Assembly: GCA_035628505.1 (NCBI GenBank)
Contig: DASPJR010000104.1
Span: forward strand, 1,468 to 65,467
From: Planctomycetota bacterium
Lineage (GTDB): Bacteria > Planctomycetota > SZUA-567 > H5-PLA8
Direction of reading: 5' to 3'
Length of the DNA: 64,000 nucleotides
In this document: piece after piece, positions 21,007 through 25,467 of the stretch
Layout: every line of letters starts with the position of its first letter
Position numbering within the stretch: the stretch's first letter is position 1
Made by a program: the position numbers and the translations under genes
The notes under the pieces: model-generated
What the model saw: only the letters and a program-made list of their open reading frames with translations
Database searches by the model: none
Told to the model about the DNA's origin: nothing

Positions 21007-24000
21007 TTATTTGCCACTGCCCGATTTGCCTTGGCGCGCCTTGTAGCTGAACGTCGCGTCGGCCGAGTACAGCACGCCTTCGATCGAGAGCGACAGCGGA
21101 ATGGTCACAGGGGTCGCGACGAGGACGTCCTTGTCCTCAGCACCATACTTGGCAACGAGCTGCGCCAGCGAATCTCCGCGGCGTGCGTAGCGGATCTCGC
21201 CTTTCTTGTAGTACCAGCGGAACGTGCCCTGCGCGTCGCTCGTTTTGCCAAGCTGGAACGAACCTGAATCCGTCACGGTGTTGCCGATCAGCAGCTTCAC
21301 TCCGGCGCCGTTGGTCGCTTCGTAGAACGCGAACTTGTCGAGGTAGCCGAAGTCCTTGAAGCTCGTGAACGTGATGTTCAGCGTGTCCGAACCCGTCTTG
21401 AAATTCAGCTTCAGCTGCTTTTTGGTAATCGATACGGGAACGACGGTGCCGGCAACGATGCTGCCGAAGCCGCCGACGGGCAGTTGCAGCGATGCCTGCG
21501 CGGAAAGCCCGGTCCCCGCGTGCGAAGCGGTGACGGTCACGGTGTATAGCCCGGCCGCGGCGAACGTGTGCGTCGGAGTAGCACCAGTCGCCGCCAGCGT
21601 ACCGTCGCCAAAGTCCCAGGAATACGTCGCATCGGGAGCACTCGCGGCACAGCTGAACGAGACTGCTTCGCCCTTCTTCGCGGGATTCGGCGTTGCGGTT
21701 GGCCCGCTGGTAATCTGGAAGCTCTGCGTGATGGTGACGCGGTCCGACGCTTTCTCGAGCACGAACAGCGAACCACTAATGACGCCGATGTCGACGGTGA
21801 TATCGCCTTTGAATGGCGCGCCGGCCGGCGTCACGATGTCGAACGTTGCCGTGTCCGTGCCGGCGGGAAGATCGATGGTGTCGGAAATCGTCGTGTAATC
21901 GGTGCCGTTTACTGCCGTGCCGCCGATGGAAAGCTTGAGCGTGTAGCTGCGCTTGGAGCTCTGCGTGCGCGTAATCGTGAACGTGCCCTTGTCGCCCGGG
22001 CCGGCAACCGCGTCTGTCGCGGCGATGCTGATGTGCGACATGTCATCGTCGTCGGTGACGCTGTTGGCCGCGCTGCTGACCGTTCCCAGCACGTAAGCGG
22101 CATCTTCAAGCAGGGAGATGCTCAGCGATTCGGTGCCTTCGATGTCCGTGTCGTCGATGACCAGCGGCTCGACTGCAACACTTGCGGAGCCTGCAGGAAT
22201 GGTCGCCGTGAGCGGCAAGGCAGTGAAATCGGTTCCGTTGATCGCGCCGCCGCCGAAACTGTAGCGCACGACAAGAGGGTTGCTCGTATCGCCCGTGCGG
22301 CTGATCGTGAAGAGCGGATTGGCCGTACCACCTTCGATTCCAGAAGAGCTCGTGGCGATTGTCACCGTCGGCGGCGAACTGAGCTGCAGCGAAAGCGAGA
22401 TGCCGCCGGTGTCACCGTCGTAGCCGTCGAGCGCGATATAGTAAGTCTGCCCCGACGTCGCAGCGAAATAGACCAGGCTGGTGAACGTCGTCGACGACGC
22501 ATCATCATTCGATGAGACGGCCGTCAGTGCGTTGACCGCCGATCCCGTGTACACGGCGAGCACCGTGTCGAAGGTGCTGCCCTCGGTTTTCAGTACCACG
22601 CGCCCGCTCGCCGGGGCCGTCCACGACCACCACACAGACTTTGAAGCCGTCACCTGCGCGTGCGCCGGCTCGCCGGTTTCGGCAGTGGCGCTGTTGTTGT
22701 ACGCCAGGGCGGAAGCGCTGCTGCCGGTGAGAGTAAAAGCGCTGCCGAAGTTGTCGTTTCCAGGCGCGGCAGCAGGCGCAAGTGCGAGGGCCATGCGGAT
22801 GTTTCCGAACGCAAAGTTGGTCCCCGTGCTGTCCACCGCAATCTGGTATGTCGTGCCGGACACCGCCGTGAACGTGACTTCACTGTTCAGCGTATTGGCG
22901 TCGAAATCGTCATTGTTGACCACCAGGCTCAGGCCGTTGACAGCCGTTCCGGTGTACACGGCCAGGATCGTGTCGAACGGGCTGCCGTACGTGTTGATTG
23001 TCGCCGTGCCGTTTGCGGGCGCGGTCCATGACCACCACACCGAGTTTCCGTTCGCGTTTGCAAAATGAGCGGGTTCTCCGGCCTCGGCTGTTGAGCCCAC
23101 ATTTGATCCCGCGGCTTCCGTGCTGAAGCCCTGAAGAACAATGCGGCTGGCAAAAGCGTCGTTGGGAGGAGTGGCTCCGGCCTGCGTCAGGTTGAGCTGC
23201 ACGTCACGTCCGCCGCCTTCGGCGACCAGGTAGCCGTCGACGACGATCTGGTAGACCGTGCCACTTGTCGCTGAGAACGTAACACGGCTGCTGAGGACAT
23301 TGGTAGATTCGTCATCGTTGCTCGAAATCTCTGTAAGCGCGTTGACGGCGCTTCCCGTGTACACAGCAAGAACGGTGTCGAAGTTGCTGCCCGCGGTCGT
23401 GATCGTCACCAGGCCGTTTGACGGTGCGGACCAGCTGTACCAGATGGACGATTTGGGCGACAAACCCGCGTGGTTCGGCTCGCCGGTTTGAGGGGAGGCG
23501 TTCTGTGTCGAGCCGTACGCCGTTGCCGTCGCGCCGCTGACCAGGACGCGGCCTGCGAAGTCATCATTTCTTGGCCGGAAAGCGTCGTGTGAGAGCACCA
23601 GGACTTCAACTTCGCCGCTGTTTCCATCGCGCGTATCCACAGCGATGATGTACTCCGTGCCGGCCACCGCCTCGAAAGCAACGATGCGAGTCTGCGCATA
23701 GAGACTGAACAATTGTCCGTTATTACTGCCCACTTCGGTTAATGCGTCCAGTGCTGTCCCGGTATAGACGGCCAGGGCCGGCTCAAAGGTTTTCCCGCGG
23801 GCGCTTAGGTTGACCCAGCCATTTGCCGGCGCCGTCCACTTCCACCACACGGATCGTCCGCCGTCGACTGCCGCATGCCTGGGCTCGTTGGGTTCTTTGG
23901 TGGCGTCAACCAGCGTGCCGGTTACGCCCGTTGGAAAGCCGTTGATCGCCGTGCGGTTGGCGAAGGCGTCATTTGGCGGACCCGCGGGGGCGCTCACGAG

Positions 24001-25467
24001 AATATTCACCGCTGCCGAAACGGTCACCGCGCCGGCGTTGTCGGTTGCCGCGGCGGTAAGGCGATAGTTTCCGCCCGGGAGGTTATTCAGCGTCGCCGTG
24101 TACGGCGCGGCCGTGCTCTCGCCGACCTTGGCCGTGCCCTGGAAGAATTCAACCTTTGTAATCGTGCCATCGCTGTCCGACGCATTCGCGCTGATCTGCA
24201 CGCTCGCAGGAGCGGCGAAACTCGCGTTGTCCACGGGCGCGGTAATGCTGACGCTCGGCGCAGCGTTGCCGCCGCCTTTCGACGCGCGGAATCCGGCAAG
24301 AATGGAAACCGTGTTGTTAATCGCTCGCGCATTATCCGCCTGATCGGCCACACCGATTGGAACGCCGCGGAAGGACAGATTCGGATTTGAGAAGTACGGA
24401 ATCTTCTCGCCAGGGTAGCTCATCACGGTGCCGTAGCGCGTGCCTTCGGCGATGAAATTATGGCCGTAAGCGTAGGAAAACGCGCCCTGTCCGCCCGAGT
24501 TCGCCTTGTCGTGCGCGCAGCCGAGATTGTGGCCGAGCTCGTGAATGTACGTGTGGTTCTTCACACAGGTACGGTCGACGACGCTGAAGGCCGCTTCTTC
24601 GAAGCTCGGGCTGGGATTGGTCATCACGTACGCAATGCCGCACGCGTCGCTGAGACTGTCCACGAGCAGGCAGACCACGTCCGCGCCGTGCTGGTCGCGC
24701 AGCGCATGGACGTCATCCATGAAGCCGTCGTTCTTTTCTGCCAGCCGCGTAAGATCGGTTTCGCTCTTGCCCGTTTCGTTGTAGCTCAGCTGCCCGCGAT
24801 GGACGAGGTTCAGAGTCGCGTTGATCTGGCTGTTGCTGAACACGGTGTTCGCGTCGGAGATGGCCAGGTCGATGACTGAATTGATTCCGTTCAGCCCGCC
24901 GGCGCCGTTCATCGCGGCGGCCGTGTAAACGATCATCACGTCGATCTGGCTGTTCGCTCGCGGCGCCACCGCGCGCGTCGAGGCCAGGTTGGCCTTGTGA
25001 TCGAGAACTTTAGGGCGCAGGAACTGGCTGCGGTCAATTTCGGCGATAACCTGCTGGCCGTTGCCGTGGTAGTGAATGCTGAAAACGCCGCGTCCGGGAA
25101 TTTCAATCAAGCCGGCCATCGCATCGTTGCACAGCGCCAGCTGCACCAGGCTGTCTGGGAAGCCCTCCACCGTGCCGCGCCACACCGACCGGCCTGCTTC
25201 GATGGTCTGAACGGACGTGATCACCGCCGTGAAAACGGCATCGTCAAAAAGATTGAGCAGCAGCCGCGTGCCGCCTTCCTTCGTCTGTATCGGCAGTGAT
25301 GTCGCGTTCAGCGGCGCCGTCCGCACGCGCTTGTCCCCCACGCTGGGCGCGCAGCGCGAGGCTACTCCCTGCGTGTAGTTGACGCGAAACAGCGCCGGAA
25401 CGTCTTCGGCTTTCACGGATGCGATGGCCAGAAGCAGGCTGAGCAGAGCAAGAATGCGGATGCGCAT
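21007..25467 (-). CDS. secreted multidomain zinc metalloprotease (reprolysin/M12B-like) with Ig-like, 4x PPC-like, 2x Calx-beta and PKD domains
   Basis: Signal peptide MRIRILALLSLLLAIASVKA. HELGHNLGCAHD metzincin motif. Big_7-like Ig domain. Four tandem ~125-aa repeats sharing ND.FA..GEP.H..SVWW.WTAP..FDT.LAVYTG..NDD..Y.I.VDG. Two Calx-beta (DDTDIEGTE). PKD (WDFGDG). 1486 aa. Confidence 0.85.
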   Translation of the reverse strand: MRIRILALLSLLLAIASVKAEDVPALFRVNYTQGVASRCAPSVGDKRVRTAPLNATSLPIQTKEGGTRLLLNLFDDAVFTAVITSVQTIEAGRSVWRGTVEGFPDSLVQLALCNDAMAGLIEIPGRGVFSIHYHGNGQQVIAEIDRSQFLRPKVLDHKANLASTRAVAPRANSQIDVMIVYTAAAMNGAGGLNGINSVIDLAISDANTVFSNSQINATLNLVHRGQLSYNETGKSETDLTRLAEKNDGFMDDVHALRDQHGADVVCLLVDSLSDACGIAYVMTNPSPSFEEAAFSVVDRTCVKNHTYIHELGHNLGCAHDKANSGGQGAFSYAYGHNFIAEGTRYGTVMSYPGEKIPYFSNPNLSFRGVPIGVADQADNARAINNTVSILAGFRASKGGGNAAPSVSITAPVDNASFAAPASVQISANASDSDGTITKVEFFQGTAKVGESTAAPYTATLNNLPGGNYRLTAAATDNAGAVTVSAAVNILVSAPAGPPNDAFANRTAINGFPTGVTGTLVDATKEPNEPRHAAVDGGRSVWWKWTAPANGWVNLSARGKTFEPALAVYTGTALDALTEVGSNNGQLFSLYAQTRIVAFEAVAGTEYIIAVDTRDGNSGEVEVLVLSHDAFRPRNDDFAGRVLVSGATATAYGSTQNASPQTGEPNHAGLSPKSSIWYSWSAPSNGLVTITTAGSNFDTVLAVYTGSAVNALTEISSNDDESTNVLSSRVTFSATSGTVYQIVVDGYLVAEGGGRDVQLNLTQAGATPPNDAFASRIVLQGFSTEAAGSNVGSTAEAGEPAHFANANGNSVWWSWTAPANGTATINTYGSPFDTILAVYTGTAVNGLSLVVNNDDFDANTLNSEVTFTAVSGTTYQIAVDSTGTNFAFGNIRMALALAPAAAPGNDNFGSAFTLTGSSASALAYNNSATAETGEPAHAQVTASKSVWWSWTAPASGRVVLKTEGSTFDTVLAVYTGSAVNALTAVSSNDDASSTTFTSLVYFAATSGQTYYIALDGYDGDTGGISLSLQLSSPPTVTIATSSSGIEGGTANPLFTISRTGDTSNPLVVRYSFGGGAINGTDFTALPLTATIPAGSASVAVEPLVIDDTDIEGTESLSISLLEDAAYVLGTVSSAANSVTDDDDMSHISIAATDAVAGPGDKGTFTITRTQSSKRSYTLKLSIGGTAVNGTDYTTISDTIDLPAGTDTATFDIVTPAGAPFKGDITVDIGVISGSLFVLEKASDRVTITQSFQITSGPTATPNPAKKGEAVSFSCAASAPDATYSWDFGDGTLAATGATPTHTFAAAGLYTVTVTASHAGTGLSAQASLQLPVGGFGSIVAGTVVPVSITKKQLKLNFKTGSDTLNITFTSFKDFGYLDKFAFYEATNGAGVKLLIGNTVTDSGSFQLGKTSDAQGTFRWYYKKGEIRYARRGDSLAQLVAKYGAEDKDVLVATPVTIPLSLSIEGVLYSADATFSYKARQGKSGSGK

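Follow-up and report, generated by a model that had tools for sequence, protein, structure and literature searches.

A predicted modular metzincin zymogen with PPC-like, Calx-beta-type and PKD modules in a Planctomycetota bacterium

The DNA analysed here is a 64,000-nucleotide stretch from a Planctomycetota bacterium (contig DASPJR010000104.1 of assembly GCA_035628505.1; hereafter the window), and the gene in question lies at 21007..25467 on the reverse strand. Our results suggest that this gene likely encodes a Sec-exported, modular metzincin, i.e. a zinc endopeptidase that would be made as a latent zymogen and whose binding modules would attach it to a polymeric substrate. Nine modules follow the catalytic domain: an Ig-like Big_7 domain, four PPC-like repeats, a pair of Calx-beta-type domains, one PKD domain and, last, a basic C-terminal orphan domain. 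A first-pass annotation of the same DNA had already read a 1486-aa secreted protein here; its open reading frame (ORF) proves exact, a Sec signal peptide is recognizable and every motif that it quoted is present.

This ORF is a real gene, because an identical protein has been deposited and a syntenic full-length orthologue exists. The deposited protein (GenBank HYG75504.1, from a Planctomycetota metagenome-assembled genome) is annotated merely as an 'Ig-like domain-containing protein', and the same protein is present with identical sequence in three assemblies. The orthologue (P0002, from other metagenomes) has 1495 aa and shares 65% identity over 99% of the length, and its locus is syntenic, with a zinc-dependent alcohol dehydrogenase (Zn-ADH) gene upstream and an Na/H exchanger gene downstream. 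Pfam E-values for five domain types are 1e-13 to 1e-18, i.e. beyond chance. The gene also looks expressed, judging by the ORF, a likely ribosome-binding site and an upstream hairpin; a sigma-70 promoter scan detected none, such a scan being uninformative for Planctomycetota. The gene and its N-terminal and catalytic parts are laid out as follows (window coordinates; (-) is the reverse strand):

21007..25467 (-): whole coding sequence, 1486 aa plus stop, ATG start; the sole long ORF there
25478..25483 (-): likely ribosome-binding site (GAGGGA), located 10 nt before the start codon, read from the sequence
25408..25467 (-): Sec signal peptide, residues 1-20, MRIR + ILALLSLLLAIASV + KA/ED (the slash marks the cleavage site), read from the sequence
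24952..25407 (-): prodomain, residues 21-172 (~150 aa), kept in active relatives
24274..24951 (-): metzincin catalytic domain, residues 173-398, matched by Reprolysin_5/4/3 and a Mep72-like NCBIfam profile
24508..24543 (-): zinc-binding motif HELGHNLGCAHD, residues 309-320, with H309, H313 and H319 as predicted ligands and E310 as general base
24412..24432 (-): Met-turn GTVMSYP, residues 346-352, with M349 and, two residues on, Y351

The assignment to the reprolysin-like metzincins, as proposed by the first-pass annotation, is borne out by profile matches. The reprolysin-like Pfam families (PF13688, PF13583 and PF13582) all exceed their gathering cut-offs, i.e. Reprolysin_5 with 63.8 versus 27 bits, Reprolysin_4 with 61.3 versus 22 bits and Reprolysin_3 with 49.6 versus 22.4 bits, at E-values of 3e-17 to 7e-13. 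The extended motif HExxHxxGxxH is matched by HELGHNLGCAH (residues 309-319), which is kept in active relatives, and D320 directly follows the third zinc histidine (H319), an adamalysin/M12B-type feature. The best sequence match among solved structures is a snake-venom metalloproteinase with HELGHNLGMAHD, to which the zinc motif HELGHNLGCAHD is identical at 11 of 12 positions; overall, M12B members of solved structure are only marginally similar in sequence (E 0.008-0.7). The segment that runs from the zinc motif to TVMSY aligns with HEIGHTLGLSH...SVMSY of the Pseudomonas aeruginosa alkaline protease, and this alignment to SVMSY identifies M349 as the Met-turn methionine. A tyrosine two residues past that methionine occupies the 'tyrosine-switch' position of other metzincins (PMC11674741). 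By sequence, the catalytic domain thus combines an adamalysin-type zinc motif with a serralysin/astacin/pappalysin-style Met-turn, and bacterial homologues typically show the same combination (HELGHN.G..HD with [TI][VI]M[AS]Y).

All catalytic residues are present in both the window protein and P0002, so that the active site appears intact and the protein is predicted to be an active protease. The catalytic domain is also the best conserved part relative to the orthologue (83% identity). It contains cysteines 266, 276, 301 and 317, which probably form two disulfides in a pairing that we infer; Cys276 and Cys301 are kept across bacterial homologues as xCGIA ... xCAxG. The NCBIfam Mep72 model (NF052434) matches the catalytic part only, at profile positions 2-244, with 131.5 bits; orthology to Mep72 was rejected, since the equivalog cut-off of that model is 645 bits. 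A weak NCBIfam SVAGG match also falls inside the catalytic domain. Together with the names and profile matches of homologues (below), the Mep72 match gives indirect evidence that the MEROPS family may lie near the bacterial Mep72/peptidyl-Asp endopeptidase group.

The first-pass annotation had called the zinc motif rare in bacteria, which our results do not bear out. A limited search returned 38 bacterial or metagenomic homologues of the catalytic domain with 28-52% identity, most of them ~200-390 aa long and many of them fragments, and NCBIfam has bacterial models for both Mep72 and CpaA. These relatives span several bacterial phyla, and some carry source names such as 'M12 family metallo-peptidase' (Herpetosiphonaceae and Gemmatimonadaceae) and 'zinc-dependent metalloprotease family protein' (Tepidisphaeraceae). 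The Mep72 model recognizes the closest homologues, and the CpaA model does so more weakly.

Such names raise the possibility of an enzyme of narrow specificity, either an Asp-N-like peptidyl-Asp endopeptidase or a CpaA-like O-glycoprotease whose repeats shape the cleft, both M72-type. A 44%-identical homologue is indeed named 'peptidyl-Asp metalloendopeptidase' by JGI, and the close relatives P0273, P0274 and P0140 match the CpaA model (E 1e-9 to 1e-14); CpaA itself is an M72 member whose substrate cleft is built in part by four tandem Ig-like repeats (PMC7542363). However, the JGI name is an automatic annotation, the window protein matches neither the CpaA model (E <= 1) nor CpaA in the PDB (E <= 10), and the repeats of CpaA are of a different type and lie N-terminal to its catalytic domain. 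We therefore consider a narrow specificity of this kind unlikely. Neither substrate nor cleavage specificity can be read from the sequence.

We then compared proteins that join a metzincin-like domain to arrays of the 135-aa repeat. The sample comprises 26 proteins and is biased to repeat-rich ones. The zinc motif and Met-turn are intact in five of them, i.e. the window protein, P0002, P0004, P0006 and P0140. All 21 remaining proteins are catalytically dead: PV[VA]LSFNFGCQLER replaces the zinc motif and STVE[AG] replaces the Met-turn, while the domain itself is kept (E 1e-42 to 1e-48), as in P0010, P0038, P0129, P0134, P0135, P0142, P0150, P0151, P0155 and others. These relatives look like pseudo-proteases that form a sizeable pseudo-metzincin clade. 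One could accordingly take the window protein for an adhesin or surface-matrix protein with a functionally vestigial metzincin domain, given that most relatives of the same architecture are pseudo-proteases and that ~73% of its length consists of binding-type modules. This is very improbable in our view: the window protein and P0002 both keep every catalytic residue, no other part of the protein is as well conserved as the catalytic domain, and a prodomain is retained, which is sensible only for an active enzyme. Judged by these motifs, the window protein clearly falls among the active members.

The N-terminal part suggests how a secreted protease of this kind could be kept inactive. The signal peptide lacks a lipobox cysteine and its predicted cleavage site looks cleavable; the xA/E cleavage context is kept in P0002, P0004 and P0006. 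The prodomain has no Pfam family match, and its similarity extends to the active relatives P0002 (59% identity), P0006 (E 9e-14) and P0004 (E 1e-10). Near its N-terminus lies Cys39 (window 25351-25353, (-)), the lone conserved prodomain cysteine, within SRCAPSVGDKR in the window protein and PRCIPGVGDKR in P0002. Of the five cysteines of P0002, four lie in the catalytic domain and the fifth is the counterpart of Cys39, which fits a free thiol for the latter. Cysteine switches have been described for metzincins of bacteria and archaea, and N-terminal ones are documented for ulilysin and mirolysin and proposed for cytophagalysin (PMC11674741). Our results suggest that (i) Cys39 may be a candidate cysteine switch and (ii) the protein is probably made as a latent zymogen. 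The active relatives P0004 (residue 174), P0006 (154) and P0140 (59) carry VP[PR]CG[VA] at the end of the prodomain. This motif resembles the cysteine-switch motifs of MMPs and ADAMs. A PKMCGV-type switch is absent at that place from the window protein, which has FLRPKVLD instead.

The modules that follow the catalytic domain are listed below:

23989..24273 (-): Big_7 Ig-like domain (PF17957), residues 399-493, 66.1 bits (cut-off 24.1)
23584..23988 (-): PPC-like repeat 1, residues 494-628, more diverged than the other copies, no direct Pfam match
23179..23583 (-): PPC-like repeat 2, residues 629-763, PPC 27.7 bits (cut-off 25.9)
22774..23178 (-): PPC-like repeat 3, residues 764-898, PPC 23.5 bits, slightly under the cut-off of 25.9
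22369..22773 (-): PPC-like repeat 4, residues 899-1033, PPC 27.7-27.8 bits, AlphaFold2 model
22033..22368 (-): Calx-beta domain 1, residues 1034-1145, acidic motif VIDDTDIEGTE, DDTDIEGTE at residue 1105
21712..22032 (-): Calx-beta-like domain 2, residues 1146-1252, acidic motif lost (IVTPAGAPFKGDITVDIG)
21475..21711 (-): PKD domain, residues 1253-1331, WDFGDG at residue 1284
21010..21474 (-): orphan C-terminal domain, residues 1332-1486, 155 aa, no family

An Ig-like domain had been expected directly after the catalytic domain, and Big_7 fills that place; it also matches PDB 9kvu (E 1.2e-24). The array behind it had been described as four repeats of ~125 aa. Four tandem copies are indeed present, and the spacing of LAVYTG (residues 565, 700, 835 and 970) gives them a period of exactly 135 aa over residues 494-1033. 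By piecewise BLAST against a self-masked copy of the protein, their pairwise E-values are 1e-24 to 1e-38, and they are mutually 36-50% identical in global alignment. No DNA-level tandem repeat was detected across the array, the copies being too diverged. Each repeat is nearest to its positional counterpart in the orthologue (60-73% identity versus 36-51% off-diagonal), which implies that the array is old and that all four copies have been individually maintained. A recent tandem duplication at the DNA level was therefore rejected.

We assigned the repeats by combining profile and fold comparisons. PPC (PF04151) has a gathering cut-off of 25.9 bits and matches two of the four copies above it, as listed. 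A 57-unit alignment of the family yields the signature P.ND.FA.R..L.G ... AT.E.GEP.H ... S[VIL]WW.WTAP..G ... VYTG..L..L ... AGTTY.IAVDG; eight of these 57 units match PPC and two match GBD_T9SS_assoc (E < 0.01), so that Pfam sees this repeat subfamily only marginally. The AlphaFold2 model of repeat 4 is a nine-strand beta-sandwich (predicted local distance difference test score, pLDDT, 95.5; predicted template modelling score, pTM, 0.90). Its best PDB fold matches in Foldseek are the collagen-binding domains of ColH and ColG, the PPC domain of a Bacillus anthracis collagenase and the claudin-binding C-terminal domain of the Clostridium perfringens enterotoxin (E 2e-4 to 1e-3, template modelling score 0.44-0.64, 10-17% identity; the matches 3jqw, 1nqj, 1nqd and 5sv5 have E 2e-4 to 7e-4 and template modelling scores of 0.53-0.78). 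The best PDB sequence match of the repeat profile is the metalloprotease chain 2luw (E 0.011), which we take to be a PPC domain. On these Pfam matches and the modelled fold, the repeats belong to the PPC/collagen-binding-domain superfamily, and the earlier PPC/collagen-binding reading is right at that level. The best conserved polar positions of the repeat are N6-D7 and E35, plus E32 in the consensus. The calcium site of the ColG s3b domain consists of an N-terminal Asn/Asp and acidic residues ~25 further on, which makes a calcium site in the repeat a lead only.

The suggestion that the repeat type might be new does not survive a wider search. The repeat profile finds at least 38,631 proteins at E <= 1e-3 among 1.84 billion representative proteins, 24,424 at E <= 1e-10 and 9,150 at E <= 1e-30, with up to 27 copies in a single protein. 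With a hidden Markov model built from the four copies, we counted 4 repeats in P0002, 15 in P0004, 14 in P0006, 10 in P0010, 8 in P0034 and 5 in P0038; P0034 has no protease domain.

These observations bear on a second explanation of the array, namely that the repeats are classical pre-peptidase helpers for folding or envelope passage that are cleaved off, leaving a ~25-kDa catalytic domain as the mature enzyme, with no targeting. Their membership of the PPC superfamily is compatible with such a role, as is the autoprocessing of Mep72, which splits the catalytic domain from the accessory binding modules during or after export (PMC4334185). By contrast, all four copies are positionally conserved in the orthologue, relatives with 8-27 copies often have no protease domain (e.g. 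P0034) and are hard to explain by help for a single protease, and the nearest solved folds are ligand-binding domains for collagen or claudin. We hold a helper role to be quite unlikely and prefer to read the repeats as modules that would bind a substrate.

Of the two Calx-beta domains announced by the first-pass annotation, the first is canonical in its acidic motif and the second is degenerate. Domain 1 scores 20.5-20.9 bits, under the PF03160 cut-off of 27. We nonetheless call it Calx-beta, because the orthologous domain in P0002 scores 40.5 bits and because of its homology to Calx-beta arrays; both domains match the bona fide Calx-beta arrays of P0027 and P0185. Domain 2 is 29% identical to domain 1 (E 4e-8) and appears to be its degenerate duplicate: it has IVTPAGAPFKGDITVD at the position of DDxDxExxE and no Pfam Calx-beta match. 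The PKD domain stands as proposed, with 52.3 versus 23.5 bits for PKD (PF00801) and 57.9 versus 27 bits for PKD_4 (PF18911), and it matches the PKD domain of ColH among PDB sequences.

The C-terminal region had been put at ~200 aa without a sorting signal; the domain is 155 aa long, and a sorting signal was indeed not found. No relevant NCBIfam match to PEP-CTERM, LPXTG, GlyGly-CTERM or a type IX secretion system (T9SS) C-terminal domain was found over the whole protein at E <= 1, and the tail (...SYKARQGKSGSGK) is without a hydrophobic stretch. Residues 1325-1486 have no Pfam match at E <= 5, and the domain has no transmembrane segment. It is the only clearly basic domain (K+R 20 versus D+E 13), whereas the prodomain is near neutral (K+R 16, D+E 14) and every other mature domain is acidic. 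A metagenome scan returned solely copies of the P0002 orthologue and a GTDB genome scan returned no match. A word-indexed search with a 161-aa C-terminal segment gave zero matches, missing even the parent protein (P0001) and the 59%-identical P0002 that are present there, and its result does not mean absence. The AlphaFold2 model of this domain, from a two-sequence alignment, is unusable (pLDDT 30.3).

We propose the following sequence of events. After Sec export, the prodomain would keep the enzyme latent, with Cys39 possibly acting as a cysteine switch that caps the zinc; activation would follow once proteolysis has removed the prodomain. The PPC-like repeats, and probably also the Calx-beta, PKD and C-terminal modules, would anchor the enzyme to an extracellular substrate that is insoluble or polymeric, for which protein fibres, glycoprotein or a polysaccharide matrix are candidates. 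Docking would raise the local substrate concentration, as PKD and collagen-binding domains do in clostridial collagenases and as carbohydrate-binding modules may do in Mep72. Autoprocessing may later free the catalytic domain, as reported for Mep72 (PMC4334185). The enzyme could thus serve nutrient acquisition or matrix remodelling for the Planctomycetota bacterium.

Several points weigh against this proposal. The 21 dead relatives among the 26 sampled imply that the architecture can work without proteolysis. Cys39 lies elsewhere than VP[PR]CG[VA] does in the three active relatives that are more distant, and this motif is absent from both the window protein and P0002. PPC domains as described by Pfam are usually removed after secretion and do not usually act as binding modules. 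Finally, no outer-membrane export signal was found, nor any adjoining secretion-system, inhibitor or chaperone gene. On balance, we still regard a docked, secreted metzincin zymogen as the likely reading. On the two points where the first-pass annotation saw itself as vulnerable, M12-type profiles match the catalytic region significantly and the repeats stay within the PPC/collagen-binding superfamily.

The neighbours of the protease gene are housekeeping genes (i.e. Zn-ADH, SNase, two Na/H exchanger-TrkA_N genes, DUF72 and AnmK), and neither the repeat nor the catalytic domain recurs elsewhere within the window. One further element lies between the Zn-ADH and protease genes:

25618..25647 (-): perfect 11-bp GC-rich hairpin GCAGAAGCCGG-ttcatgtg-CCGGCTTCTGC, 27 nt past the Zn-ADH stop

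This hairpin is probably a terminator or an RNA-stability element between the Zn-ADH and protease transcripts. If it is a terminator, the protease gene would have its own promoter. The hairpin lacks a T-run, which is why a consensus terminator scan does not list it.

Downstream of the protease gene, a membrane ORF of 176-181 aa with about four hydrophobic helices (window 20440-20985, (-)) follows on the same strand after 21-36 nt and shares 44 nt with the 3' end of the Na/H exchanger gene, which is convergent. Public assemblies list it as a gene, and it has no Pfam or PADLOC match. The orthologous locus is without this ORF and has 33 bp between the protease and exchanger genes. We rejected the ORF as an operon partner or inhibitor, since it has no family match and is absent at the orthologous locus. 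For the protease itself, a role in anti-phage defence was rejected for want of a PADLOC match.

The Zn-ADH ORF (25674-27017, (-), 447 aa) is over-extended: public calls and the orthologue start at MRAAFVTEFGG and give 345 aa, and the extension overlaps a 197-aa SNase-domain gene (26770-27363, (+)). The two Na_H_Exchanger + TrkA_N paralogues (16063-17793, (-), and 18741-20483, (+); 576 and 580 aa) are divergent with the DUF72 gene between them, and the pair is also adjacent in the orthologous contig, without DUF72. Further away, the window encodes a 1269-aa protein (31038-34847, (+)) with a Ser/Thr protein kinase domain at residues 227-478 and ~800 other residues without a Pfam match, and a 593-603-aa ORF (27707-29518, (-)) that is a public gene call with no Pfam family.

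Taken together, the protein is a new combination of known, common parts and not a new kind of protein. Its exact module order was seen in no other retrieved protein, although no systematic search for module order was made. A broader synthesis, which we put forward tentatively and with more doubt than confidence, would be that (i) the 135-aa unit is a distinct, very abundant PPC/galactose-binding-like subfamily that Pfam barely detects and that maybe has its own ligand; (ii) the window protein is a minority active member of a metzincin-headed clade made up mostly of pseudo-proteases; and (iii) the basic C-terminal domain is a possible envelope- or polymer-anchoring module specific to this Planctomycetota lineage.

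For annotation, the gain is that an 'Ig-like domain-containing protein' becomes a predicted secreted metzincin zymogen of modular build, for which domain borders and catalytic residues are defined. Planctomycetota break down complex polymers, and to our knowledge their exoproteases are almost uncharacterized. Current understanding is not overturned, and the family-level leads, i.e. the abundant PPC-like repeat and the pseudo-metzincin clade, are more interesting than the protein itself. The repeat is extremely common in environmental bacteria and poorly captured by Pfam, and a dedicated model together with a binding study would extend annotation to tens of thousands of proteins. Within the clade, active enzymes and dead pseudo-proteases form a natural series on one scaffold, which is of use for asking what a metzincin fold does after catalysis has been lost.

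Compared with known systems, the window protein shares parts with several and coincides with none of those considered here. The adamalysin/reprolysin venom metalloproteinases and ADAMs (M12B) resemble it in the near-identical zinc motif, in the Asp after the third His and in the Reprolysin_3/4/5 matches. Its Met-turn differs, since TVMSY with a Tyr two residues after the Met is of serralysin/astacin/pappalysin style and the Met-turn of adamalysins is of another style. The window protein also lacks the disintegrin and Cys-rich domains and the PKMCGV-type switch.

Among giant modular metzincins, cytophagalysin CPL1 is a 137-kDa bacterial member of the pappalysin family that has eight Ig-like domains besides a signal peptide, a prosegment and a catalytic domain, and it shares with the window protein a putative cysteine switch near the N-terminus of the prosegment and the Tyr two residues after the Met-turn Met (PMC11674741). 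The two differ in family, CPL1 being of pappalysin/ulilysin type, and in their accessory domains; moreover, the C-terminal domain of CPL1 is T9SS-like, whereas no recognized export domain is present in the window protein.

CpaA of Acinetobacter, a MEROPS M72 glycoprotease (PMC7542363), likewise joins a metzincin domain to four tandem beta-sandwich repeats, and its catalytic model is matched by relatives of the window protein. Its domain order is reversed and its repeat type is another one, and CpaA needs the chaperone CpaB, for which no gene is adjacent here.

Mep72 (PA2783) of P. aeruginosa provides the best curated profile match for the window catalytic domain. It combines a metzincin with two carbohydrate-binding modules, uses type II secretion to leave the cell and undergoes processing that frees the catalytic domain (PMC4334185). 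The likeness consists of a metzincin with a Sec signal that is followed by non-catalytic binding modules; Mep72 is without the Big_7, four PPC-like, two Calx-beta-type, PKD and C-terminal domains of the window protein. A bamI-type inhibitor gene is not adjacent here, the downstream ORF being an unrelated, non-conserved membrane protein whose similarity to BamI itself was not compared.

The clostridial collagenases ColG and ColH belong to a different catalytic family, i.e. they are M9 gluzincins and not metzincins, and the repeats of the window protein are 11-17% identical to their collagen-binding domains and have a conserved signature of their own. The likeness lies in the overall design, in which PKD and PPC/collagen-binding beta-sandwiches come after a catalytic domain and serve to tether the enzyme to an insoluble substrate.

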